Source: an uncultured Gemmatimonadaceae bacterium
GTDB lineage: Bacteria; Gemmatimonadota; Gemmatimonadetes; Longimicrobiales; RSA9
Direction of reading: 5' to 3'
Length of the DNA: 64,000 nt
Assembly (NCBI GenBank): GCA_964430275.1
Contig: CAYSGF010000027.1
Location: forward strand, 8,133-72,132
Part shown: positions 1,821-13,714 of the stretch, one piece after another
How positions within the stretch are numbered: the stretch's first letter is position 1
Layout of the letters: each line of letters starts with the position of its first letter
Notes under the pieces: generated by a model
What the model was told of the DNA's origin: nothing
Database searches by the model: none
The model's input: the letters and a program-made list of their open reading frames with translations, nothing else
Translations under genes and position numbers: made by a program

Positions 1821-2666
1821 ATGAACGACGATCCGCGCCCACCCGAACGCCGCCGCGGCGAAGAGCCGGAACGGCCGCCCCGCCGCCGGCGCCGCCCACG
1901 CGAGCTGTGGGAAACCGAAACCGAGCCGTTCCCCGGTGCGCTCGCACTCTGGGACCTCGAGGATGCTCCCGCCGACGACGCCGCCACCGTCCTCGCGCGC
2001 TTCTCGGTGCTGCGCTGTCTCGCGGCGGTCACGGCCGGCCGCCGGGCGGCGGGCCGGCACGCCCGGCGCGCCGCGAAGGGATACCTGGATGTCACGCCGG
2101 AGGCGGCCGCCCGTCCGCTGCGCCGGCTGCTCGGCCGCCGTCGCGCGGCGCCGGCGCCACTGTACCGCGCGCTCGTGGACGCTGGACTTCAGGCCGCGGA
2201 GCGGGGGCACGCGGGCGGGGCGTACGCACTGCTCCGCTGGGCGTACGAGGTGGCGATGGTCGCGGGAAAGTCCAGGCCGGCAGCACGCGTTGCCGCATGC
2301 ATGACGCGCCTCGCCGCGGAGGACGACGCGCCGTACTCCGCCCGACGATGGACCGTCCGCGTCCATGCACTCGTCGGCGACGACGGCGTACCCGGACCGC
2401 TGGTCCGGTCCTACGTTGCAGGCATGAAGCCGAACGAAGAAGCGAAGGGCGGCGGGTACGATGCTGACGCGCGCCGCCGCCTGGCGGCGTCGATTGCCGC
2501 CGGCACACCCGCGATGTGTCCGGTGTGCAATGCCCCGGTCAGCATGACGGAGGTAAGGCCGCCAGAGGGTGTGTCCTACGTACGCCGCCGCGTCTGGGTG
2601 CTGTGCACGGGGTGCCGGCGCACGGCAGCGCTGGACGACCCCGGCCGGGCAGGCGGCGGCGTCTAG
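1821..2666 (+). CDS. hypothetical protein, Arg-rich N-terminus, C-terminal zinc-ribbon-like CPVC...CTGC
   Basis: ATG 1821 preceded by GGAGG at 1811-1815. No family recognised. C-terminus carries CxxC-x27-CxxC. Confidence 0.6.
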   Translation: MNDDPRPPERRRGEEPERPPRRRRRPRELWETETEPFPGALALWDLEDAPADDAATVLARFSVLRCLAAVTAGRRAAGRHARRAAKGYLDVTPEAAARPLRRLLGRRRAAPAPLYRALVDAGLQAAERGHAGGAYALLRWAYEVAMVAGKSRPAARVAACMTRLAAEDDAPYSARRWTVRVHALVGDDGVPGPLVRSYVAGMKPNEEAKGGGYDADARRRLAASIAAGTPAMCPVCNAPVSMTEVRPPEGVSYVRRRVWVLCTGCRRTAALDDPGRAGGGV

Positions 2667-3580
2667 GGCTGCTGCGGGCGCGCGACCATGATGCCGTCCT
2701 GCCCGTCGATGCCCACGATCCGTTCGGCCAGCGGCAGCTCGCTGATCTCCACGCTGCGGCCGACCAGCGGCGCGTGCATGAGGTGCAGCCGTCCGTCCAC
2801 CCAGAGCGCGAAGCCGGTGTGCGCGATGTCGAGGCCGGGCTGCGTGCTGGTGGCGGCAATGACGTCGCCGGAACGGATCTGATCGGCAATGCCTCCGATC
2901 CGATCCTCCGGGATATAGAAGCGCGGCACTTCCGTCAGGTCCCCTTCCCGCTCGCGGATCGCCGCCAGGTTCACCGAGTCGGCGAGCTGCCGGTACGCGT
3001 CGACGTGCGACGTCATGAAGTCGATGCCGGTGCTGTCCTGCACGCCGCCGAGTGCACGCGTAAGGTTCTCGACCACCCCCTTCTCCGCGTTGTCCGAGAT
3101 CCACTCACTGAAGTAGTGCAGGCGGCTGGGGTAGCCGGCGAGCTCGCCATCGCGGTAGCGGATGCGCCGGAGCTGGTTCTTGAACTCGGCGTACGTCGGG
3201 TCCTCTCCGAGCGCCGTGCGCGCCAGCGCGAGCATGTGCTCGACGTAGGTGACGCAGTCGAACTCGCGCAGGTTCACCACCAGCTGCTCCGTCTGCGGCA
3301 CCTCGAGGAGCCCCGGCGTATAGGGCGCACCGACGAACTCGCGCGCGATCTCGGCAGTGAGCGTACCGATCGCGAGCGTATCCAGCCGCTCCTGCGCTAC
3401 CCGTGTCATCGTGCGCTCGAAGATGAGCGAGTCCTCCGGTGTGTCGCTGACCGGCTGCGGCGCCGCATCGTCAGGCTGTTCCTGTGCCGGCGGCGCGGCC
3501 TGGTCGTCGGTATCGGCGGGCGCGCAGGCGGCACCCAGGAGCAGAGCGATGGCGAGCAGCGAGCTGGTGACACGGTTCAT
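2663..3580 (-). CDS. DUF1460-like lipoprotein (amidase-like fold family)
   Basis: AGGAG upstream of ATG 3580. Lipoprotein signal LLLGAAC. The body (FDCVTYVEHMLALA ... HTGF ... HLMHA) matches my recollection of DUF1460. Confidence 0.75.
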   Translation of the reverse strand: MNRVTSSLLAIALLLGAACAPADTDDQAAPPAQEQPDDAAPQPVSDTPEDSLIFERTMTRVAQERLDTLAIGTLTAEIAREFVGAPYTPGLLEVPQTEQLVVNLREFDCVTYVEHMLALARTALGEDPTYAEFKNQLRRIRYRDGELAGYPSRLHYFSEWISDNAEKGVVENLTRALGGVQDSTGIDFMTSHVDAYRQLADSVNLAAIREREGDLTEVPRFYIPEDRIGGIADQIRSGDVIAATSTQPGLDIAHTGFALWVDGRLHLMHAPLVGRSVEISELPLAERIVGIDGQDGIMVARPQQP

Positions 3581-4310: not shown

Positions 4311-4780
4311 CATGCGCCATCCGGCGCCGACTGCTGCAGTGCCTCGGGCCGCAGCAGTGCGTCGATGTAGTACGCCACGGCGTCGATCTCCCTGAGACTC
4401 AGTCCCGCCACGCCCCAGGTCGGCATGCCTCGCGGGTGGCCGACAAAGATGCGACGGCGTATCGCGTCGAGGTCGCCGGCATGCGGCCAGTCCGGCTCGA
4501 CGAGCGACGGTACGTCGATCTGCTCGCCACGCACCTCCGCCGGACCTCCCCGCCCCAGGTATCCGTGGCAGCGACGGCAGCGTGCGGCGAACAGGTCGTT
4601 GCCGGCCGCCAGCCGCACGCTGTCTCCGTTCCAGGCGATGGTATCGAACATCGCCGGGTCGAACATCGAGTCCGCTTCCGCGACCTGCGCGGCGCGCGAC
4701 GGCGGCTCGAACTCGTGCGACTCGCACGCCGCCAGCGTCGCGGCGAAGAGCATCAGGGTGGGCGCGGCGGCAGGTCTCAT
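4310..4780 (-). CDS. monohaem c-type cytochrome, lipoprotein
   Basis: Single CRRCH motif and a downstream GMPTWG Met-ligand-like motif. Lipobox TLAAC. ATG overlaps the upstream stop (ATGA at 4777-4780). Confidence 0.8.
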   Translation of the reverse strand: MRPAAAPTLMLFAATLAACESHEFEPPSRAAQVAEADSMFDPAMFDTIAWNGDSVRLAAGNDLFAARCRRCHGYLGRGGPAEVRGEQIDVPSLVEPDWPHAGDLDAIRRRIFVGHPRGMPTWGVAGLSLREIDAVAYYIDALLRPEALQQSAPDGA

Positions 4781-5178
4781 GGATGGCCGGGAGGCAGACT
4801 GTCGCCCGCAGGGCTTTCCTCCGGATGGATCAGCGAGGCGCCCGGCGAGATCTCCTGCGTTCGCCGCATTGCGGACTCGGCAGCCTCGAGGTTGCCCAGC
4901 TGCCGCTCGACCATGTAGACGCCGAACCAGACGGCGGGCTCATCCGGTCCGGCTTCGCTCGCCGCATAGTAGTGCCGGCGCGCGCGCTCATAATCCTGCG
5001 CGCGAAATGCCGCATTGCCGCTGTCGAGCTGCGCCTGCACGACGGCCGGCAGCGCACGCGCTTCGACCCAGCTCGTCGAATCGATCGAGCCGGTCGCCTG
5101 GTCATCCGGCGGCCCGTCAGGGCCGCACGCCGCGACGACACCAATCGTCAGCACTGCGATTACCTGCCTGCCCGTCAT
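4777..5178 (-). CDS. TPR-repeat lipoprotein
   Basis: Lipobox VVAAC. Two TPR-like units (GNAAFRAQDYERARRHYYAA..., VYMVERQLGNLEAAESAMRR). ATGA overlaps at both ends (5175-5178 and 4777-4780). Confidence 0.7.
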   Translation of the reverse strand: MTGRQVIAVLTIGVVAACGPDGPPDDQATGSIDSTSWVEARALPAVVQAQLDSGNAAFRAQDYERARRHYYAASEAGPDEPAVWFGVYMVERQLGNLEAAESAMRRTQEISPGASLIHPEESPAGDSLPPGHP

Positions 5179-6686
5179 AGGCTTCCTCCGTCCAGCGGAT
5201 CACCAAGATGGCAGACCTGGCAGATCGCGGCATTGCGCGCCTGTGCGCGCGCCGGATCGAAGCCCGGCCCGTGGGGACTGACCTTGAATGCGCCCAGCAC
5301 CGAGTGGCACTGCATGCACTCGTTCTGCTGGTGACAGCTCGCGCAGCTCTCGAGTCCCTGGCGTGCGGCCTGTCCGTGCCGCAGCAGCCAGAGCGGCTCC
5401 GCATCGTGGAAGCCGGGGCCGAGTCGGCCCGCCACGCGGGCAGAGCTCATGCCCGAGGTCTCGTGGCAGTCGGCGCAGAAGGCACGGCTGTCGTGACAGT
5501 TCGAGCATTCGAGCCGGCGGCCGTACGCCTCTGCCGAGTGACGTGCCAGGTAGTTGGGTGGATGGAATGCACCCGGCCGCAGCGTACGCGACGTGTCGCT
5601 CGCCAGCCCGCCTGCCACCAGCGCCGGTGCACCGGTCGCCGCCGCGTCATGGCACTCTACGCACATCGTGCGGGTGTGGCAGGCCAAGCACGATGCGCCG
5701 CCGGTGGCGGCGACATTGCCGTGATCGAGCGCGAAGAGCGGCGCCTCGTGCGAGGGCGGCCGCTGGCGCTCCACGCCAACGCCGGGTGCGCGCACGTCGC
5801 GCCGCGGCGGCAGCCCGGCAACCGCGTCCGGTTGCGGTGGCACATGACACGACAGGCAGTCCTCCCGTGTGTGACACCGGCTGCAGCGCGCGATGCTTGC
5901 ATTCGCGCCGTGATCCTCGAGGAAGCCCGGCCGCTCGTGTGAGGGGGGAATCGGATAGTGCGCCGCGAAGCGTGGCAGCTCGCGCGCTACGACACCCTGT
6001 GCCGCCGGCATGGCCTGGATCGCCGCGACCTGCGCCGCATCCACGTGGCAGTCGGCGCAGCGCTCACGGGTGTGACACGTCGCACAGCGCGCGAGGTCGG
6101 CCTCCGCCAGCTCCCCATGCAGGTCGCGGATGAACTCGCCGCTCTCGTGGTCCGCCGGATAGGGCAATCCCACGATGCCCGCGCGCTCGAACGGCGCGTC
6201 CGCGAGCGGCATGTGACATGTCTCGCAGTCCGCGTCCACGAAATGGCTCGCGGCCTCGTGCGCGTGGCATTCCAGGCACTGCGGCACGATCGGCTCCTCC
6301 GCTACCGCCATGCGCGGCGCGCCGTCGGGCGTGTGACAGGTCGTGCAGTCGATCGTGACCCCGTCGCGCTCGCCCATCGGGTGGCGCGGATGCTCGAAGA
6401 CGACGTTGTCGGGGTCCTCGATCGGCGCCTCCCATGCGACCCGCTCCTGCTCCACACCGTCGTGGCAGCCGGTACATGTCTCCGCGGGCGGATAGAACCG
6501 GCTGCGATCGCCGGCAGGAACGCCCTCGTGGCAACCTTCGCACAGCGGGAAGAGCCCCGCGTGCTCCTCGTGCGGGAAGTCCTGCTGCCGCTGCGCGACC
6601 ACGGTGAGCGCGATCGCGCTCAGTGCTGCGACGACGGCTGCAGCGGCAAACACCGCAGGCCCCTGGAAGCGCGTGAGCGAGCTCAC
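5175..6686 (-). CDS. multihaem c-type cytochrome, 16 CxxCH motifs
   Basis: I counted 16 CxxCH in the 503-aa translation. N-terminal hydrophobic signal/anchor. GTG start overlaps the upstream stop (GTGA at 6683-6686). Confidence 0.9.
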   Translation of the reverse strand: MSSLTRFQGPAVFAAAAVVAALSAIALTVVAQRQQDFPHEEHAGLFPLCEGCHEGVPAGDRSRFYPPAETCTGCHDGVEQERVAWEAPIEDPDNVVFEHPRHPMGERDGVTIDCTTCHTPDGAPRMAVAEEPIVPQCLECHAHEAASHFVDADCETCHMPLADAPFERAGIVGLPYPADHESGEFIRDLHGELAEADLARCATCHTRERCADCHVDAAQVAAIQAMPAAQGVVARELPRFAAHYPIPPSHERPGFLEDHGANASIARCSRCHTREDCLSCHVPPQPDAVAGLPPRRDVRAPGVGVERQRPPSHEAPLFALDHGNVAATGGASCLACHTRTMCVECHDAAATGAPALVAGGLASDTSRTLRPGAFHPPNYLARHSAEAYGRRLECSNCHDSRAFCADCHETSGMSSARVAGRLGPGFHDAEPLWLLRHGQAARQGLESCASCHQQNECMQCHSVLGAFKVSPHGPGFDPARAQARNAAICQVCHLGDPLDGGSL

Positions 6687-8146
6687 GGTGTGGCTCCACC
6701 GGCCAGCCCCGGATCACGGCCGAAGCCCAGACGCAGAGAGGCAAACGCACGCACCTGGTTCCAGTCCGTGTCGCCGGCGCGATTGTCCCAGCTCTGCCGG
6801 TACACGTGAGCGCCGCCGCTCAGGCGCGCATACGTCGTCACATCGAGATCGACCGCTGCGCCGCCACCGAGCACGACACCATCGCCGAGCCGGAACTCCT
6901 CGATCTGCTGGAACGCGCTCGCATCGACCGTCACCGCGACGCGTTCGTGCACGCTCCAGCGCGCACTCACGTCGCCCGAGCCGAGGTACGCACCGAATCC
7001 GCGCTCGACACGTGCGGAACCATCGAGCCTGAGCGCTGGTGAAGCCGTCCACGACGCGAGCAGCGTTGCGAACACGGCATCGTCCGGGAGGCGGCGGCCG
7101 ATCGTCGTCGTATGGGTGTCGCCATACCTGCGATAGCCGACGGAGCCGCGCAGCTGCACGGCATCGCGGGTGCGCCACGCCGCGCGTCCTTCGATCTCGT
7201 GATAGGCGACCGGGCTGAAGTATCCCCAGATCGTCCACAGCTCGAAGTACGGCACGTAGCGCGAGCCGACCGCCTCCAGCATGACGCGACCGTCGGCGAG
7301 AGGCACGCCGACGTTCAGATTCGCCTTGCCGATGTGGCCGAAGGCGAAATCATAGTCGAGACCGGCAGCCAGCCGTACCGGTGCGAGTGCGCTCGAGTGG
7401 ATGTCGACCGAGCCGCGCTCCGATACGAGGGCCGAGCGGTCCGTCCAGATCTCACGCTGGTAGCGCGCCGCGACACTCGTGTGCGCCCATGGCTCACCCG
7501 CCACCATTCCGCCGAAGATCAGCGCGTTGCGCTCCGGGAAGAACCGCTCGATGCCGGCGAGCACCTCGTGGCGGGGCTCGTAAACGCCGCGTGCGAGGCT
7601 GCGGCCACCGAACAGCTCGAGCCGAAGTGCGCGCCCGGGCGCGTAGTACACACTCGCACCGTCGAAGCTGTTGAAGCCGAGCCCGCTCGTGCTCAGCAGT
7701 CGTCCGCCCCGTGCGCGCCAGTCCCCACGCACGAACTCCGCATAGGCATGGATCACGTCCAGCGGATCGTCGCTGCGCGGCCAGTCGAAGCAACCGCCGG
7801 CCGTTGCGCGCGCGCGCAACTGCACGGTCGCGCTCAGCCCCTCCACGCCGAGTCCCCATGCGGTCATGCCGACGTCCTGCGTCAACGCGACCGCGCTCTC
7901 CGTGTCCGCCGCGAGGTAACGCACACAATGGCTGTCGGGCGCGCAGCTGATCGGCCGCCCCTCGAAGCGGTACGTGCCATCACCCGCCCGCTCCACGGCG
8001 TCGAAGGCAACAGTGTCATGGCGGAGCGGCCGCAGCTCGAAGTAGCGGGCCGTGGTCAGTGCCGAGCCGCGCACCCCCTGCGCCTGCGCGCCCGACGTGC
8101 CCATGAGCATCAGCGCAGCAGCGGCCAGGAGGCGCGGCGCATTCAC
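6683..8146 (-). CDS. predicted outer-membrane beta-barrel protein (porin-like partner of the cytochromes)
   Basis: Start set to GTG 8146-8144, which overlaps the upstream TGA (GTGA). This gives the signal peptide VNAPRLLAAAALMLMGTSGAQAQ. The rest is alternating amphipathic strands rich in Y/W/R/G, with an LRLGF motif near the C-terminus. No haem motifs. Confidence 0.7.
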   Translation of the reverse strand: MNAPRLLAAAALMLMGTSGAQAQGVRGSALTTARYFELRPLRHDTVAFDAVERAGDGTYRFEGRPISCAPDSHCVRYLAADTESAVALTQDVGMTAWGLGVEGLSATVQLRARATAGGCFDWPRSDDPLDVIHAYAEFVRGDWRARGGRLLSTSGLGFNSFDGASVYYAPGRALRLELFGGRSLARGVYEPRHEVLAGIERFFPERNALIFGGMVAGEPWAHTSVAARYQREIWTDRSALVSERGSVDIHSSALAPVRLAAGLDYDFAFGHIGKANLNVGVPLADGRVMLEAVGSRYVPYFELWTIWGYFSPVAYHEIEGRAAWRTRDAVQLRGSVGYRRYGDTHTTTIGRRLPDDAVFATLLASWTASPALRLDGSARVERGFGAYLGSGDVSARWSVHERVAVTVDASAFQQIEEFRLGDGVVLGGGAAVDLDVTTYARLSGGAHVYRQSWDNRAGDTDWNQVRAFASLRLGFGRDPGLAGGATP

Positions 8147-9783
8147 GACCCGGCCTCCGTCTGCAGAGCGTCGGGCAGTGCATGGCACGCCTCGCAGCGC
8201 CTGCCCGGCTGGTGGTCGGTCATGTCCTGGTGGCAGCCGAGACAGAGTGTGCGCGTACGCTGCGCCGCATTGACGGGTGGCGACGAATGGCAGCCCGACC
8301 CCGCGCAGGTCAGATGAGACGCGCGCGTGTGTGCGCCCTGGCGCGGCGTCCGGTGGCACGCCATACAGTCATTTGCCGGCTCGTGGTGCTGCTCATGACA
8401 GAAGGCACAGTCGATGCGCGCGGCACTCAGGTCGGGGCTACGACTGTGGCACGACGCACACGCGACGTCCGTGTGCGCCCGATGATCGAACGGAAAGCTG
8501 CGATCCGCCGCACGACCCACCGTCGGCGTGAACGGGCGCGTCGCCTGGAAGCGCTGCGATGCATACTCGGCCGGCTGATGACACCGCTCGCAGCGCTGCA
8601 CTACGGGACCACTATGGTGACACGCGCGGCATTCGCGCAGGCCGCTCACCGTGACACTGCCGTGCGTGCTCTCCACGTCGTGGCACGCGAGACACTCGAC
8701 CTGTACATGCCGTGCATGGTCGAAGTCCGCCGGAACGTCCGGCTCCGGCTGCTGCGCCGCCGCGCGCGCAGGCAGCACGAGCGCGGCGAGGAGGCGCAAC
8801 GCGCGCGCCGGCGCACGGGAGACCGTGGTGGTCCCGCCAGCCTCCGTGTGGCACGCCTGGCAGTCGCTTCCGTCCGCATGGAAGGTGTGCGCACCATGGC
8901 AGCGGCTGCACGTCTCGAGCACACCGGCATCGAGGCCACGATGGAACGGCGTGAGGGTGTCCGCCTGGCTGTGGCAGCCCGCACAGGTCGCGAAGGCATC
9001 CGCCGGCTGCGCCTGCTCGTGCGGATTGTGACACGCCCCGCACGCACCACCGTGCGGATCGTCACCCGCGAGCGGAAAGTCCGCCAGCCGCTCGCGCATC
9101 GCGTGGCAGCTCAGGCACTCCTCGCGCTGGGGCTGGAGCGCGAGCTGGGCGGAGTCCGCAGCGGCCGAGGCGACCTGCTGGTTGAAGTCGTGACACGTGG
9201 CGCAATGGATCGTCAGTGCGCCCATCTCACCGAGCTGGATGCGCTGGTCCTCATGACAGCCGGACTGGCCGCACGTCTCGTCCGTTGCCGTGAACTCGTG
9301 CACGGACGAGGAATGGCACTGCACACACTCCAGCTCCGCGATCGACGGGTCACCGCTTTCGAGGTGAACGCGATGGCCCGCCGACGACGCAATGTTGCGC
9401 CAGGCGATCGGGTCGCCCTCGACATGGCATTCGACGCACACGCGGTTCGGCACCTCCGCGTGCGCTTCCAGGCTGTCGGGGTTCTCGAGCACCTGTGTCA
9501 GCGCCATCGTGCTGCGCGTCACGAGCGTCGGCTGATGACACGCCTTGCAGCCGAGCCCACGATGCGCACTGCGCGCGAACCGCTCGAACGGATCCACCAT
9601 CAGGTGGCAGGAGAGACAGAAGTCGTTGTCGTGCTGGATGTAGTCGTACGTGCGGTAGAGCTGGAGGCCGCCTGCCACGGCGATGGCGACAACGCCGGCC
9701 CCGATGGCCACCAGTACGGCGGCCGGGAGCCGGCGGACGCGTGCCACGATGCGCTTGGTGAAGCCAGGCTTTTGTTCGGTCAA
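8143..9783 (-). CDS. membrane-anchored multihaem cytochrome, 20 haem motifs (NapC/NirT-like N-terminal module fused to c7/c3-like module)
   Basis: N-terminal TM helix followed by FCLSCH...GCKACH, as in NapC/NirT/CymA. 18 CxxCH plus 2 CxxxxCH. The C-terminal half has FDHARH...CxxCH and FPFDHRAH...CxxCH units like cytochrome c7. The start is TTG 9783; an alternative is an in-frame GTG about 36 nt downstream. Confidence 0.9.
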   Translation of the reverse strand: MTEQKPGFTKRIVARVRRLPAAVLVAIGAGVVAIAVAGGLQLYRTYDYIQHDNDFCLSCHLMVDPFERFARSAHRGLGCKACHQPTLVTRSTMALTQVLENPDSLEAHAEVPNRVCVECHVEGDPIAWRNIASSAGHRVHLESGDPSIAELECVQCHSSSVHEFTATDETCGQSGCHEDQRIQLGEMGALTIHCATCHDFNQQVASAAADSAQLALQPQREECLSCHAMRERLADFPLAGDDPHGGACGACHNPHEQAQPADAFATCAGCHSQADTLTPFHRGLDAGVLETCSRCHGAHTFHADGSDCQACHTEAGGTTTVSRAPARALRLLAALVLPARAAAQQPEPDVPADFDHARHVQVECLACHDVESTHGSVTVSGLRECRACHHSGPVVQRCERCHQPAEYASQRFQATRPFTPTVGRAADRSFPFDHRAHTDVACASCHSRSPDLSAARIDCAFCHEQHHEPANDCMACHRTPRQGAHTRASHLTCAGSGCHSSPPVNAAQRTRTLCLGCHQDMTDHQPGRRCEACHALPDALQTEAGS

Positions 9784-9852
9784 TGCCCTGTTCGTTCCAT
9801 CGACTCACGTCGCTGCGGGTGAAGCAGCAGCCGCTTCACCCGCTCGGCCGCA

Positions 9853-11304
9853 TCAATCGACGCCCAGCTCCCGCTTCAACGAGACCGTCGACGTCGCCGC
9901 GATCGGATAGTCCTCCTCGACCTGCTGGATGGAAGCGATCAGCAGCGCCTCCATGAGGAACGGGTTGTGGATCGCCGAGCCGTCGAAGCCGGTTGCGAGC
10001 TGATAATTGAACAGCGCGCCCTCACCAGTACTGTAGCGGCCGTCGCCGGCGTCGAACTCGGTCTCCGGGATCTGCTCGATCAGCGTGTTGAGCTGACCGG
10101 CCAGCAGGGCGATGCGCTGGCGCGCGACCTGGCGCAGGCTGCGCGCGACGGCTTCCGTGCCGTGGCAACCCGCACCCGTGCACGTCTGGAAGGTGCGCTC
10201 CGTATCCGCGCACTCGCCGCCCGCCTGCGGCACGCCCTGTTCGTCCAGGCAGGGGATCGCCTCGAACAGGTGACCCGTCGACTGCAGCACGAACTCGCCG
10301 GTGATCTGGTCCGTGACCTCGAAGCGGTTCACGTGGCAGCCGGCGCACAGCTGCGGATTCACTTCCGAGCCATGCGTTGCCGCGATGCGCGCGGTGTCAC
10401 CTTCGCCGCCGGGGAACGTGAGGTTGGGTGGCCACCAGCCGCCGTAGCCGAGCAGCACCGGCCCCTCGGGCGAGTGCGGTCCGCGCGACTGCGAGGCGAG
10501 GTCCGGCGTGCCGCGCTTGTGGTGGCACTTCATGCACAGGTTCTGCTCTTCGTTCGGCAGGTCCACCGGATAACGAAGCTGGCGGTCCGTATCGCTCGAA
10601 TGCGGATCGTGGCAGACGCCGCAGGTGATCGCCAGGTGATTGTCGGGCTGCGCGGTTTCCTCCTTCTCGAGGAAATCCGCACGGATGCCCCACGCCCGCA
10701 AGGCGCCCTCTCCCGAGTGGCAGCTCTCGCACTCGGCCCGGCCCGCGGCGGACGCCACCACCTGCCCGTGGCCCGACTGCTCCCACTCCTCGACGAACGG
10801 GTGGTGCGAGCCCTGGTGGCACTCACCGCAGCCGATCGTCAGGTCGAGACCGACGGCCAGGGGCGCGAGAGGAATGTTGTCATCGCCCGGATCGAGAATG
10901 TGGCTCAGTCCCGGACCGTGACAGCTCTCGCACTGGACGTTGTGGTAGCGCGTGTCCTCGACGGCTAGGAAGCCGCCCTCCTCGGTCGCGACATTGCCGA
11001 GCTGGTTCACCGTGTGGCAGCCTTCGCACGTCTCGGCCGCATGCCCGCTCGCCTGCAGAGTCGCCCATGCATCCGCGTGCGCGGTCTGCTCCCACTGCCC
11101 CTGGAAGCTCACGTGGCAGTTGCCACACACCGTCAGGTTCGTCTCTTCTTCGCTCAGACCGACAAACCCGCCGGCTCCGTCGGGCAGCTCGCCGACCAGA
11201 TCGCGATCCCGGAACACGATCCGCTCGTCCACGCACGCGCCGCCCGCCACGACCACGAGCGCCAGCACTGCCACACCGATCGTTCGCTGCACCTGACGTG
11301 TCAT
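9853..11304 (-). CDS. multihaem c-type cytochrome lipoprotein, 9 haem motifs
   Basis: Start moved to ATG 11304 (MTRQVQRTIGVAVLALVVVAGGAC, lipoprotein-type signal). 8 CxxCH plus CTGAGCH. About 100 aa of haem-free helical C-terminus. Confidence 0.9.
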   Translation of the reverse strand: MTRQVQRTIGVAVLALVVVAGGACVDERIVFRDRDLVGELPDGAGGFVGLSEEETNLTVCGNCHVSFQGQWEQTAHADAWATLQASGHAAETCEGCHTVNQLGNVATEEGGFLAVEDTRYHNVQCESCHGPGLSHILDPGDDNIPLAPLAVGLDLTIGCGECHQGSHHPFVEEWEQSGHGQVVASAAGRAECESCHSGEGALRAWGIRADFLEKEETAQPDNHLAITCGVCHDPHSSDTDRQLRYPVDLPNEEQNLCMKCHHKRGTPDLASQSRGPHSPEGPVLLGYGGWWPPNLTFPGGEGDTARIAATHGSEVNPQLCAGCHVNRFEVTDQITGEFVLQSTGHLFEAIPCLDEQGVPQAGGECADTERTFQTCTGAGCHGTEAVARSLRQVARQRIALLAGQLNTLIEQIPETEFDAGDGRYSTGEGALFNYQLATGFDGSAIHNPFLMEALLIASIQQVEEDYPIAATSTVSLKRELGVD

Positions 11305-11642: not shown

Positions 11643-12434
11643 TCAGGCGCGCGCCATGCGCGCCCGGCGCACGCCCGCCAGGTAATGCGCCCCGAGCAGG
11701 ATCAGCACGATCGCGAAGACGGCCCGCAGTGCTCCACCCGGCATCCCGAGCGCGAGCCGGCCGCCTGCCCAGGAGCCGGCGGCAATGCCGGGCACGAGGC
11801 CGAGCACGGCGTCGCGGCGAACGCTGCGGTGACGGAGGTGTGCGACGGTGCCGCTCGCGCCGGCGGGCACCATGGCGGCGAGCGACGTACCCTGTGCGAG
11901 GTGCTGTGTCATGCCGACGCCGATCACGAGCAGCGGCACCATGAGCGAGCCGCCGCCGACGCCGAGCAGCCCGGCAGCGGCGCCGACGATCAGACCGGTC
12001 GCGAGCAGAAACACGATCGTCCACGGGCCCTCGGGCGCGTGGAGCGCGAGCAGCTCGTCCTTGATCACGAGCAGGACCGCGGCGACGATCAGGAATGCAC
12101 CGAAGTAGCCGCGCAGGCGGAGTGCGGGGATGCGTCGCGAGTAACGCGCGGCGGTGTACGTCGAAGCGACGGAGATCGTTGCGAGCACGAGCGCGGTGCT
12201 CCAGTCGACGGCATCCTGGTTCGCATAGGTGAGTGCACCGGCGATCCCCGTCGCGACGACGCCGGCGAGGCTGGTCGCGTGCGCCTCGTGTTGGGTGAGG
12301 CGCGCCCAGCTGGTGAGCAGCGGAATCATCACGACGCCGCCGCCCAGCCCCACGAGCCCGCCGAACACGCCGGCGAGCGCACCGATGAAGAAAGACCGCG
12401 TCGTGCAGCGCCGCCATACCGGACCGTCGCTCAT
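11643..12434 (-). CDS. TauE/SafE family sulfite-exporter-like membrane protein
   Basis: Duplicated GGG(V/S)xMxPLL motifs in a multi-TM protein. ATGA overlap with the upstream copCD stop (12431-12434). Confidence 0.85.
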   Translation of the reverse strand: MSDGPVWRRCTTRSFFIGALAGVFGGLVGLGGGVVMIPLLTSWARLTQHEAHATSLAGVVATGIAGALTYANQDAVDWSTALVLATISVASTYTAARYSRRIPALRLRGYFGAFLIVAAVLLVIKDELLALHAPEGPWTIVFLLATGLIVGAAAGLLGVGGGSLMVPLLVIGVGMTQHLAQGTSLAAMVPAGASGTVAHLRHRSVRRDAVLGLVPGIAAGSWAGGRLALGMPGGALRAVFAIVLILLGAHYLAGVRRARMARA

Positions 12435-13714
12435 TCCGGCAGCGGCGTGAACGAGAGGGCGGCCGAGACGACGATGAGCCCGATGAACACCACGGTCTCG
12501 AGCCGCACCGAGGAGCGCAGGATCGCGCCGTCGCCATCCTTGGGCAGCGTCGCGATGATTCGGCGGTGGCGGTAGCCGAACGCGGCGAGCGCGATGAGCC
12601 CCGTCGCCTTCACGAGGACGACCCGCCCGTATCCCGTCTGCAGGAGAGCTGCCGGCGATCCGAGCAACACGAGCGCCTGCGACAGACCAGTCACTGCAAT
12701 GACGCCGAAGGACCAGAGTGCCGCGGTCGAAACGGCGCGCAGCTGCGGCAATCGAGCGGGGCCGCTACGCAGCATGCTCGACAGTGTGATGAGCCCGCCG
12801 AGCCAGACGGCGGCAGCGGCCATGTGCACCGCCCGCAGCGGGATCGCGAGAGCGGACGATACGGCCGCTGCGTGCCCGAGCGCACCGCCCGCCAGCACCG
12901 CGACGAACGCGAGCAGTGCCGCGGCACGCGCCGAGCGGGTCAGCACCCAGACGGCGAGGGCGGCCGCGGCCAGCACCATGCGGGCGAGCAGCGCCTTCCC
13001 CGTTGCGAGCTGCAGCGAAACCGACAGGTCCACGGTGCCCGCGACGTGCGTCGTCCACGTAACGAGCTCCGCGAAGACGGCGAACGGGGCCGCGAGCGCG
13101 AAGGCGGTGAGCAGCCGCTGCAGTGCGTCGGCGGCAGGTACCGAGCGGCTCGCGAACAGCAGACCACCGGCGAGCGCCAGCAGGAGTCCCGTACCCAGCG
13201 CGCGCAGGAGCGGCAGTATGGGCGCAAAATCCGTGGTCGATGGCGGCGGCGCTTCCACCACGAGGATCGGCGCAGCACGCGCGGAATCCGGGTCCGTCAT
13301 TGCCGGCGGCGACGGCACGGCTTCCGGCGACACGAGGAACGGGATTGCGCCACTCAGGACGTGGCCGTCCGCGGACGTGGTACGCCAGCGCAGCACGTGC
13401 GCGCCGGCACCGAGCGACGGCGCGGCTGCAACGATCACGCTGCCGTCGGCGCTGCCCGAGCGCGCGGCCAGTACCACGCTGTCGCGGTCGGGACGTACGA
13501 GCACGAGGCGAGTCGCGTCCACCATCACGCGAGCGCTGAACTCGAGACGTACGGTATCGAGCGGAAGGCGTAGCGTGTCGTCCTCCGCCGGCGTGGACGC
13601 ATCGAGCTGCGCGTGCAGAATGGTATGCGGAAGATTACTGCTGTCCCGTGCCGCGGAGAGCAGCACGAGACTCAGCGCCGGCAGCGCGAGCCAGGTACGT
13701 CGGTTCAGTGGCAT
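12431..13714 (-). CDS. CopC-CopD fusion copper resistance/transport protein (YcnJ-like)
   Basis: Signal peptide, then a CopC-like periplasmic domain (HAQLDASTPAEDDTL ... WRTTSADGH), then a multi-TM CopD-like domain. Confidence 0.8.
   Translation of the reverse strand: MPLNRRTWLALPALSLVLLSAARDSSNLPHTILHAQLDASTPAEDDTLRLPLDTVRLEFSARVMVDATRLVLVRPDRDSVVLAARSGSADGSVIVAAAPSLGAGAHVLRWRTTSADGHVLSGAIPFLVSPEAVPSPPAMTDPDSARAAPILVVEAPPPSTTDFAPILPLLRALGTGLLLALAGGLLFASRSVPAADALQRLLTAFALAAPFAVFAELVTWTTHVAGTVDLSVSLQLATGKALLARMVLAAAALAVWVLTRSARAAALLAFVAVLAGGALGHAAAVSSALAIPLRAVHMAAAAVWLGGLITLSSMLRSGPARLPQLRAVSTAALWSFGVIAVTGLSQALVLLGSPAALLQTGYGRVVLVKATGLIALAAFGYRHRRIIATLPKDGDGAILRSSVRLETVVFIGLIVVSAALSFTPLPE

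Follow-up and report, generated by a model that had tools for sequence, protein, structure and literature searches.

The Geobacter proteins ImcH and CbcL are inner-membrane quinone oxidoreductases with seven and nine c-type haems, respectively (PMC6295460), and a 2018 survey lists two homologues of ImcH, one of CbcL and none of CymA for the Gemmatimonadetes. Porin-cytochrome clusters are also described, among them the PCC3 and PCC4 clusters of He et al. 2017 (as cited in PMC13264449), and a 2026 metagenome paper reported such clusters together with NapC/NirT-like or ImcH-like inner-membrane cytochromes; the protein family analysed here is not described in it. This family is represented by gene B, which encodes a 20-haem c-type cytochrome and lies in a 64,000-nucleotide stretch of the genome of an uncultured Gemmatimonadaceae bacterium (GenBank assembly GCA_964430275.1, contig CAYSGF010000027.1, positions 8,133 to 72,132 of the forward strand), from here on the window. 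B is the second of the five genes of an operon whose order (A, B, the outer-membrane beta-barrel gene C, D and E) is conserved among the fetched loci. Our literature searches returned no description of the 20-haem fusion or of its operon.

A preliminary description of the window had read B as the fusion of a NapC/NirT-type quinol dehydrogenase with a secreted c7-type haem wire, with the relic of a signal peptide at the joint. Our results support a composite of two separable modules, with the boundary where that description had put it. As to the segment at the joint, we give a probability of roughly 0.55 to its descent from the signal peptide of a once-separate downstream gene. In what follows, L and P numbers denote loci and proteins, respectively.

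Gene B and its two modules

Motif counting gave 18 CxxCH and two CxxxxCH motifs in B (the latter at residues 171 and 493), 11 of them before residue 320 and nine after residue 346, in a protein with 40 Cys and 43 His. The polypeptide would weigh 59 kDa, and with its 20 haems about 70 kDa. In an alignment of 120 homologues no Cys or His of any of the 20 motifs varies, which bears out the 20-haem count proposed before. The same alignment contains 11 additional invariant His in each half, which could serve as distal ligands. The strings FCLSCH (55-60), GCKACH (78-83), FDHARH (354-359) and FPFDHRAH (430-437) were all found at the places first given for them, the last two each preceding CxxCH motifs. 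Note that the ninth haem site (residues 263-267, window 8983-8997) reads CAGCH, a CxxCH motif, in the window and in a few close relatives, while in most homologues it is CxxxxCH (C-A-x-x-G-C-H); the family norm is 17 CxxCH plus three CxxxxCH.

Only one Kyte-Doolittle peak of transmembrane (TM) strength is present in B, at about residues 19-41 and behind a Lys/Arg-rich N-terminus, and AlphaFold2 modelled residues 21-59 as a helix with a per-residue confidence (pLDDT) above 93, confirming the single TM helix that had been placed in the N-terminal half. The AlphaFold2 model of the whole protein, made without haems and with a predicted template-modelling score (pTM) of 0.42, had no match in the PDB by Foldseek (best E = 2.3), and was excluded from fold assignment and length estimates.

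In the N-terminal region, residues 19-93 resemble NrfH and NapC. The alignment with PDB entry 2j7a (NrfH) spans residues 19-86 and takes in FCxxCHxM and the second CxxCH; C56, C59, H60, L61 and M62, which are invariant in the 120 homologues, align to NrfH FCTSCHIM; CxxCHxM is reportedly, from the work on the NrfH structure, the signature of the first haem in NrfH-type proteins. Profile matches fell below the thresholds: PF03264 matched residues 31-93 only, with 23.4 bits and just below its cut-off of 24.1, and TIGR03153 matched the N-terminus with E = 7e-7 and 29.3 bits, below its cut-off of 134.2. A precomputed PF03264 match is present in many B homologues. The block Y43-x-x-Y46-x-Y48-x-Q50-H51-D52-N53-x-F55-C56-x-x-C59-H60-L61-M62 is invariant or nearly so, and it would sit at the membrane interface, the place expected for a quinol site. 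The other nine haems of the N-module matched no named family in the Pfam and NCBIfam searches, and with 11 motifs in this module and 20 in the whole of B the protein is not a compact tetra- or penta-haem domain. Thus, the NapC/NirT assignment made for residues 1-320 holds for the first 65 residues or so, and the rest of the 11-haem N-module is without a named family.

The C-module of B is a unit of about 185 residues, with eight CxxCH and one CxxxxCH in fixed order, an FxHxxH start and HH after motifs 2 and 5. When residues 340-546 were searched exhaustively with HMMER against 1.84 billion cluster representatives, 409 hits were obtained, 67 of them below 1e-30. Many of these are proteins of 225-250 residues with all nine motifs and an N-terminal signal peptide, in which the whole module aligns from about residue 35-55; lipoprotein versions were also found. 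Window residues 354-538 and 23 stand-alone proteins have the invariant columns of the module in common, and the window module is 38-49% identical to the stand-alone nine-haem proteins over their full length. The homology searches led to different places for the two halves, the N-terminus to NrfH/NapC and the C-terminal half to a large, free-standing family of nine-haem proteins that bear signal peptides.

The c7/c3 reading of the C-terminal half holds at the level of motifs only. Cytochromes c7/c3 and their polymers (PpcA; PF14522, PF02085; PDB 3H4N, 3BXU) have the same FxHxxH...CxxCH units, with local matches at residues 347-377, 353-403 and 426-478. The c3/c7/QrcA-type matches of this half are, however, local only: PF02085 (41 bits) covered profile positions 16-46 of 101, which does not amount to a three- or four-haem c7/c3 domain of 70-110 residues, the PF14522 match covers residues 220-272, inside the N-module, and the c7/c3-type PDB matches had E = 0.02-0.9, those at E = 0.02-0.04 spanning only 30-60 residues. 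Unlike c7/c3, the C-module is a conserved nine-haem unit with its own CxxxxCH site and HH pairs and without a c7 repeat array. By these sequence features it is a distinct nine-haem family, with motif-level resemblance to c7/c3 only. The nine-haem cytochrome NhcA of Desulfovibrio was considered as a relative of the C-module and rejected, as the PDB sequence search did not return it. An origin of the two halves by tandem duplication was likewise rejected, as BLASTP among the halves and the neighbouring cytochromes and hhalign of the N- against the C-module profile gave only multi-register matches between haem motifs.

Free C-modules adjoin a [NiFe] hydrogenase (small and large subunits, cytochrome b) on the P0353 contig (JGI 3300043331) and lie inside NapD/NapA-like molybdoenzyme clusters (L048:3524-8435, L009:11940-16350). 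Because of these contexts, the nine-haem module looks like a general periplasmic electron carrier in the Gemmatimonadota. In many genomes with a fused B, a C-module lipoprotein paralogue is also found just downstream of E (L016:14690-15991, L028:13295-14341, L029:12579-13481, L043:10613-11596, L046:9881-10732); it has an extra N-terminal haem motif and a conserved RRFLPDEMxRSTRxESFPHxAH, and the window has no such paralogue.

The linker and its signal-peptide-like segment

Between H312 and F354 the two modules are joined by a hypervariable linker, with a median length of 49.5 residues in the family (range in Table 1). In the window, residues 322-348 read SRAPARALRLLAALVLPARAAAQQPEP. The signal-peptide-like segment had been correctly mapped to residues 322-345 and nucleotides 8749-8820; the string quoted for it was 27 residues long (322-348) and not 24, a trivial slip. 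The linkers fall into three classes, two of which have hydrophobic patches. In the window's clade (P0002-P0017, 62-69% identity), a well-conserved L-x-x-L-A-x-L-x-L-P-x-x-x-x-A-Q-Q comes after a variable stretch rich in P, S, T and A, and in other clades there are different short patches (for example VRLASAG..PALARLALAAHA, GMLPxLW, VGIGWW and GFGLGLPP). The third class is considered below, with the evidence on the direction of change.

Hydrophobic residues are more clustered in the window linker than in shuffles of the same linker (maximum 9-residue hydropathy 2.58, p = 0.016), and AlphaFold2 predicted a helix at residues 327-336 (pLDDT 66-78). Several other features recall a signal peptide. 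The most hydrophobic 9-mer of the 117 long linkers is shifted to the C-terminal side (median relative position 0.66), and from the end of the patch to the FxH start of the C-module there is a median of 18 residues, compared to 24.5 in the genuine signal peptides of the stand-alone relatives, the Wilcoxon p-value being inflated because the sequences are related. Moreover, the signal peptides of many stand-alone C-modules end with AxA-Q(Q) a few residues before FxHxxH, as in P0192 (...RLAAAALPLLLAGAVPSNVDAQQPPPETEDFSHRQH).

In Smith-Waterman comparisons the window linker scored as genuine signal peptides do, with a median of 26 against 120 unrelated ones from barrel proteins and 31 against 74 from stand-alone C-modules; for reference, signal peptides gave a median of 28 against each other, and the median with haem-domain windows was 17. 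The best scores were obtained with the signal-peptide regions of P0334 (63), the stand-alone C-module of L047, and of P0192 (61), compared to a maximum of 47 over the 120 unrelated ones. In the alignment with the signal-peptide region of a split relative, AGARRTISRAVRLAAILPLLLAATVPASLDAQQVPPETEA stands against AGGTTTVSRAP--ARALRLLAALVLPARAAAQQPEPDVPA.

The hydrophobicity of the segment could also suggest a second TM helix. However, no linker among the 120 aligned homologues has a 19-residue hydropathy above 1.5, nine conserved haem motifs would lie in the cytoplasm if the segment crossed the membrane, and the segment is missing from about one third of the family. Nor is the fusion a product of assembly, a possibility that the preliminary description had raised: a search of 5.8 billion proteins gave at least 120 full-length relatives of B (510-625 residues, 45-69% identical, more than 90% query coverage), all the named ones from Gemmatimonadota or Longimicrobiales assemblies, and the fused open reading frame (ORF) recurs in well over 100 independent assemblies (NCBI, JGI, ENA and Logan), which excludes it. 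An exact look-up of B itself in the contig index gave no match. The chance that the segment is a second TM helix or the fusion an artefact is next to negligible.

The AxA-Q site behind the hydrophobic core raises the question of cleavage. In Bradyrhizobium, the cytochrome b/c1 precursor FbcH is a respiratory polyprotein with an internal signal peptide before a downstream c-type cytochrome, and it is cleaved there. As occurs with FbcH, the signal-peptide-like segment of B is internal and precedes a downstream c-type cytochrome, and in the split relatives the equivalent site is at the true N-terminus; signal peptidase I could then cut at AAA|QQ and free the nine-haem C-module into the periplasm. 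In FbcH, however, the upstream part ends in the cytoplasm, so that the signal is correctly oriented, whereas the 11-haem domain of B would have to be periplasmic for haem attachment. From Sec and signal-peptidase topology, this would put the N-terminal side of the segment outside the membrane, in the wrong orientation, and make cleavage topologically unlikely. The hydrophobic core is also only 9-12 residues long. We consider cleavage very improbable.

Another way in which a competent signal peptide could be used, and which would account for its retention, is translation initiated within B, just upstream of the hydrophobic core, giving a secreted nine-haem cytochrome beside the anchored 20-haem form. 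A Met is present at the N-terminal edge of the core in 6 of 17 clade members (for example MRVLATLVLPQRAAAQQ, MLRVLAALVLPARATAQE and MPRHPLLRSLASLVLPQRAAAQV), codon 329 is TTG in the window and codon 332 is GTG in L001, and the split locus L100 (see below) indicates that such a start can be real. These candidates lose weight because no Shine-Dalgarno-like sequence precedes the window TTG and none that convinces precedes the L001 GTG, the two starts are at non-aligned positions, and the clade members are related, so that the recurrence of Met is not independent. Internal initiation is thus quite improbable. The broader idea that a cryptic but competent signal peptide in the linker makes the architecture reversible, and may act as a one-gene switch through such a start, is a long shot as well; if true, one gene would supply both a fixed (anchored, 20-haem) and a diffusible (secreted, nine-haem) periplasmic electron carrier.

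Split loci and the direction of change

Across all fetched loci there are 50 fused forms of the window type (F1), 17 fused forms of a second type (F2), 13 (possibly 16) split forms in the B position and 33 C-modules elsewhere. The F2 forms belong to another operon family, which is more divergent and has its genes in an unchanged order (L067, L071, L078, L082, L094, L099, L106, L111, L112, L118 and L124; P0245, P0246, P0250 and P0283). Its fused B proteins have 600-700 residues, two hydrophobic segments at the N-terminus (PLPGG..QWLQIGG..) and, in the loci examined, linkers that reach about 105 residues.

The two halves were found as separate, adjacent ORFs in L100, with the junction at about nt 380-400 of contig Ga0335070_10036433. 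Here the N-module ORF ends ...CLRCHQNVLREGAPVRGAAGAGAPPAAASPVAGAW-TGA and, 7 nt on, there is an ATG preceded by the Shine-Dalgarno sequence GGTGAGGA; the second ORF opens MKTAHHVAAVLAALLSAAGPLRSQQ... (MKTAHHVAAVLAALLSAAGPLRSQQPATPRP...RDFRHAIH) with a signal peptide, and the C-module, the barrel and D follow. Split versions are also present in the same operon elsewhere (L008, L009, L011, L028, L038, L047 and others), and the two halves are thus not always parts of one protein. L008, from a Gemmatimonadota metagenome-assembled genome, has in this order A (55% identical to that of the window), a stand-alone C-module (42%), the barrel (47%), D (48%) and a stand-alone N-module. The latter, a protein of the F2 type with 378 residues and 11 haem motifs, stops four residues behind the last haem, and its identity to residues 22-314 is 43%. 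In L009/L010, L011, L028, L038, L047, L051, L054, L057/58, L059, L098 and L122, the fetched stretch has A, the C-module, the barrel and D without an N-module, and in L070 the C-module comes after D.

Some of these forms are deletion derivatives. The apparent signal peptides of L028 and L038 are B's own TM anchor, GRLAPAILAALGLVIVTGAGG compared to GRLSPAVLAVVGVLIAAGVGGG of the sister locus L029 (Smith-Waterman z = 13.9 for L038 and 7.8 for L028). As the mirror case, P0132 (L005:8001-9478, L006:3425-4902) has an intact 11-haem N-module followed by RRFEHARERAIDRASL, a remnant of the start of the C-module (RRFEHARE), a stop and then directly the TPR gene; by this layout, the C-module, the barrel and D are deleted. 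A different cluster (cytochrome, 300-residue protein, cytochrome) lies 3 kb downstream of P0132, behind a two-component system. Note that the short proteins with only the N-terminal half (P0121, P0126, P0132, P0143, P0151 and P0167) were rejected as split forms: they are contig-end partials, a frameshifted gene or a deletion derivative.

A number of observations weigh against the descent of the segment from the signal peptide of a fused downstream gene. Linkers of the third class, which have fewer than 30 residues (20-30) and no hydrophobic patch, make up 73 of the 206 distinct linkers. A profile hidden Markov model of the clade linker brought up no signal peptide above reversed or shuffled decoys, and for this reason we rate it as likely, and not as proven, that one element is seen here in two states, as part of the linker and as a real signal peptide. 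In the window's clade, conservation of the motif matches that of the folded domains, unlike that of the rest of the linker; because of this, the motif is probably under selection now, whatever its origin, and would have a present function rather than be a neutral relic. The operon trees, made with A, the barrel and D (1372 columns) and with the barrel and D (920 columns), are well resolved, and in both the split loci are nested in fused clades at at least three positions: L008/L011 with L012, L040, window/L001 and L002/L015; L009 as sister to that clade; and L028 plus L038 with L029. Since the split loci nest in this way, parsimony makes the fused state ancestral for the sampled operons. From their sequences, the split forms L028 and L038 clearly arose by in-frame loss of the 11-haem domain and are not ancestral. 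Finally, L100 is a single metagenome contig with its two ORFs one reading frame apart, and a sequencing frameshift is possible. The internal signal peptide that had been proposed stands in that the segment scores like genuine signal peptides and is closest to those of the split relatives P0334 and P0192; its conservation in the clade speaks for constraint rather than for decay, and about one third of the family lacks it.

These results could also be explained by fission alone, with the fused B as the original form and the segment as a functional element that arose in the linker, for example an amphipathic or hydrophobic helix docking on the membrane, the C-module or a partner protein. Upon deletion of the N-module this element would have been co-opted as a signal peptide, or the TM anchor reused. 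The nested split loci, the anchor kept by L028 and L038, the C-module remnant in P0132/L005, the fused state in two deep operon families (F1 and F2) and the conserved, predicted helical motif all agree with this. However, fission alone leaves without explanation why the patch is always the last part of the linker, as far from the start of the C-module as a signal peptide would be, and it does not account for the full n-h-c layout with AxA-QQ, for the independently secreted C-modules in unrelated contexts (the Nap-like cluster, the [NiFe] hydrogenase cluster and the lipoprotein paralogues) or for the clean Shine-Dalgarno, ATG and signal-peptide start right after the N-module stop of L100. We regard it as possible but doubtful.

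Near the window's clade the trees are compatible with both directions. In the barrel plus D tree, L047 is the earliest branch of a clade with 199/200 support that contains the window, and since the earliest branches near the window's clade (L009 and L047) are split, a split state followed by renewed fusion is no less parsimonious than three independent fissions. The tree of the N-module agrees broadly with those of the operon, and its F2 clade (200/200 support) includes the N-module that stands alone in L008. From the C-module (187 columns), a neighbour-joining tree gave no polarity, with deep bootstraps below 30%. Fission is thus as well documented as fusion, and for the window's clade neither is favoured by the topology.

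Some fusion, deeper than the sampled operons, would nevertheless be the simplest origin of B, because C-modules circulate independently in several respiratory contexts and NrfH/NapC relatives exist without them. Descent of the segment from a signal peptide, which is the reading that we prefer, would thus have started with a downstream C-module gene, with its signal peptide, joined to an upstream N-module gene before the sampled operons diversified, followed by repeated fission and deletion events in which the linker element or B's own TM anchor was reused as an export signal. The idea of two formerly separate genes is in keeping with the separable modules, the split loci and L100, with the corrections that the fusion is not recent and that the split forms are in part deletion derivatives. 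In any case, the family offers a natural series made up of neighbouring genes, of fusions whose linker is either signal-peptide-like or short, and of deletion derivatives that reuse the linker element or the TM anchor for export. This series shows how secreted proteins can be fused and split without loss of export, and it is an unusually complete set of fusion and fission forms involving a signal peptide.

The operon and its comparison with known conduits

The coordinates of the modules of B and of the other genes of the operon are collected in Table 1. The G+C content of the window is about 69%.

Table 1. Features of gene B and of its operon; positions are those of the window.
Feature	Residues of B	Positions	Strand	Description
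Gene B	1-546	8143..9783	-	546-residue, 20-haem, inner-membrane-anchored c-type cytochrome; TTG start; stop overlaps gene C start
N-terminus of B	1-41	9661..9783	-	Lys/Arg-rich cytoplasmic N-terminus, then single TM helix (signal anchor), from hydropathy and AlphaFold2
Membrane-proximal region of B	43-93	9505..9657	-	Conserved YxxYxYxQHDNxFCxxCHLM...GCKACH block; NrfH/NapC-type membrane-proximal di-haem region, putative quinol site
N-module of B	42-316	8836..9660	-	11 haem motifs; ends CH-x-[D/E], the stop point of the L008 stand-alone N-module
Inter-module linker of B	313-353	8725..8847	-	Hypervariable, 20-105 residues across the family
Signal-peptide-like segment of B	322-345	8749..8820	-	SRAPARALRLLAALVLPARAAAQQ; clade pattern LxxLAxLxLPxxxxAQQ
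C-module of B	354-538	8170..8724	-	Nine haem motifs; homologous to free-standing secreted nine-haem cytochromes of Gemmatimonadota
Gene A		9853..11304	-	About 483-residue cytochrome, eight CxxCH and one CxxxxCH; probable start ATG 11304; lipoprotein-type signal VVVAGGAC
Gene C		6683..8146	-	487-residue outer-membrane beta-barrel, about 22 long strands, signal peptide; start GTG 8146 overlaps B stop (GTGA)
Gene D		5175..6686	-	503-residue cytochrome, 16 CxxCH, N-terminal hydrophobic signal or anchor; start overlaps C stop
Gene E		4777..5178	-	133-residue TPR lipoprotein, VVAAC lipobox; start overlaps D stop

Four of the five genes overlap by 4 nt, B and C at GTGA (8143-8146), C and D at GTGA (6683-6686) and D and E at ATGA (5175-5178), which suggests that their translation is coupled. 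The ORF listed for C, with 558 residues and beginning at 8359, is too long, and the actual start codon is GTG 8146, before the signal peptide VNAPRLLAAAALMLMGTSGAQAQG. The 69-nt spacer between A and B contains a perfect 9-bp inverted repeat, GGGTGAAGC-N7-GCTTCACCC (window 9817-9841, minus strand), and L047 has a comparable hairpin after its A gene. The repeat could work as an attenuator, or act in mRNA processing or stability and so set the A:B ratio.

The AlphaFold2 model of C, based on an alignment of 45 sequences (pLDDT 84.5, pTM 0.75), is nearly all beta, with the strands behind a signal-peptide helix. Foldseek matched it to outer-membrane barrels only: MOMP and AlgE with E of about 1e-9, the FimD usher with a TM-score of 0.50, and FepA and PfeA at about 0.45. 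No Pfam or NCBIfam match was obtained for C. Two invariant Cys, C68 and C74 (window 7923-7943), lie in a small three-strand insert near its N-terminus and may form a disulphide in a plug or a periplasmic loop. The barrel gene is flanked by those of two multihaem cytochromes, B and D. For A, there were weak sub-threshold matches to MtrC domain II/IV and DmsE-type models: TIGR03508 gave 36 bits with A and 16.7 with D (cut-off 192), and PF22113 gave 28.2 with A (cut-off 30). Thus, in the Pfam and NCBIfam searches neither the barrel nor the cytochromes reached the thresholds for homology to MtrB/PioB, MtrA/DmsE or MtrC. In A a lipobox-like VVVAGGAC follows the signal sequence, and A is a candidate for a surface-exposed lipoprotein cytochrome.

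Outside the operon, a TauE/SafE-family membrane protein (263 residues) and a CopC-CopD fusion protein (427 residues) are encoded directly upstream (window 11643-13714, minus strand). Downstream of E there are an AmiA-like amidase (2663-3580) and an MFS transporter (444-1715), and an AmiA-like gene is also downstream of the operon in L002. In this locus (L002:1-6387) the operon has as neighbours the genes for an Rnf complex (RnfC/D/G/E/A), for ApbE and for a pyruvate:ferredoxin oxidoreductase, a hint that the energy metabolism of this relative may be anaerobic and linked to ferredoxin.

Because the operon has a barrel, a lipoprotein cytochrome, multihaem cytochromes and an NrfH/NapC-like B, it is most likely an electron conduit of the porin-cytochrome type in direct connection with the quinone pool, and B probably carries electrons from the cell membrane to the outer-membrane pore in soil Gemmatimonadota. 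B would insert with its N-terminus in the cytoplasm and with everything after about residue 41 in the periplasm, as needed for haem attachment. Quinol would be oxidised at the NrfH-like, membrane-proximal haem 1, and electrons would pass along the 20 haems across the periplasm to D and from there to A, with bis-His ligation available for nearly all of them. In MtrA and OmcS the haems are spaced by about 0.8 nm per haem; at this spacing, a fully extended 20-haem chain would measure about 15 nm. The periplasm has a width of this order, and a length of about 15-20 nm would be needed to bridge it. D, with its 16 haems, would probably thread the barrel, and A would be the outer lipoprotein terminal at the surface. 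Electrons may flow to external acceptors or, in reverse, be taken up from external donors.

Gemmatimonadota are among the most abundant bacteria in soil, and their respiratory range is poorly known. If the operon has the role proposed here, it would give these bacteria a self-contained route for electron exchange with minerals, humics or partner cells. A quinol dehydrogenase and a wire in one polypeptide would need no soluble shuttles (PpcA, FccA, STC), a compact design that may be of interest in bioelectrochemistry.

Compared to the NrfH/NapC/NirT/CymA family (PF03264, TIGR03153, PDB 2J7A), B has the same single N-terminal TM helix directly before FCxxCHxM, with a second CxxCH about 20 residues on. 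However, only the first two of the four haems of that family align to B, and its members have 4-5 haems while B has 20, without a partner reductase gene nearby. As occurs in the porin-cytochrome conduits of Shewanella (MtrCAB with CymA) and Geobacter (Pcc/Ext), the operon has the genes of a barrel, of a multihaem lipoprotein cytochrome, of a long multihaem cytochrome of the periplasm and of an inner-membrane cytochrome that would oxidise quinol. It differs from them in the barrel, which has no MtrB/PioB match and about 22 strands in 487 residues, in the cytochromes, whose matches to DmsE/MtrC-type models are weak and below cut-off, and in having the putative quinol dehydrogenase and the periplasmic haem module in one polypeptide. 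In ImcH and CbcL, too, one chain carries both a membrane quinol module and additional c-haems in the periplasm, and ImcH has partial NapC/NirT similarity; B, in contrast, has no NCBIfam or Pfam match to them, one TM helix instead of three or six, and its 20 haems in two linked modules. Thus, a membrane quinol module with extra c-haems is known from ImcH and CbcL, and what is of interest here is a compact, shuttle-free design that would span the envelope, in an abundant soil phylum.

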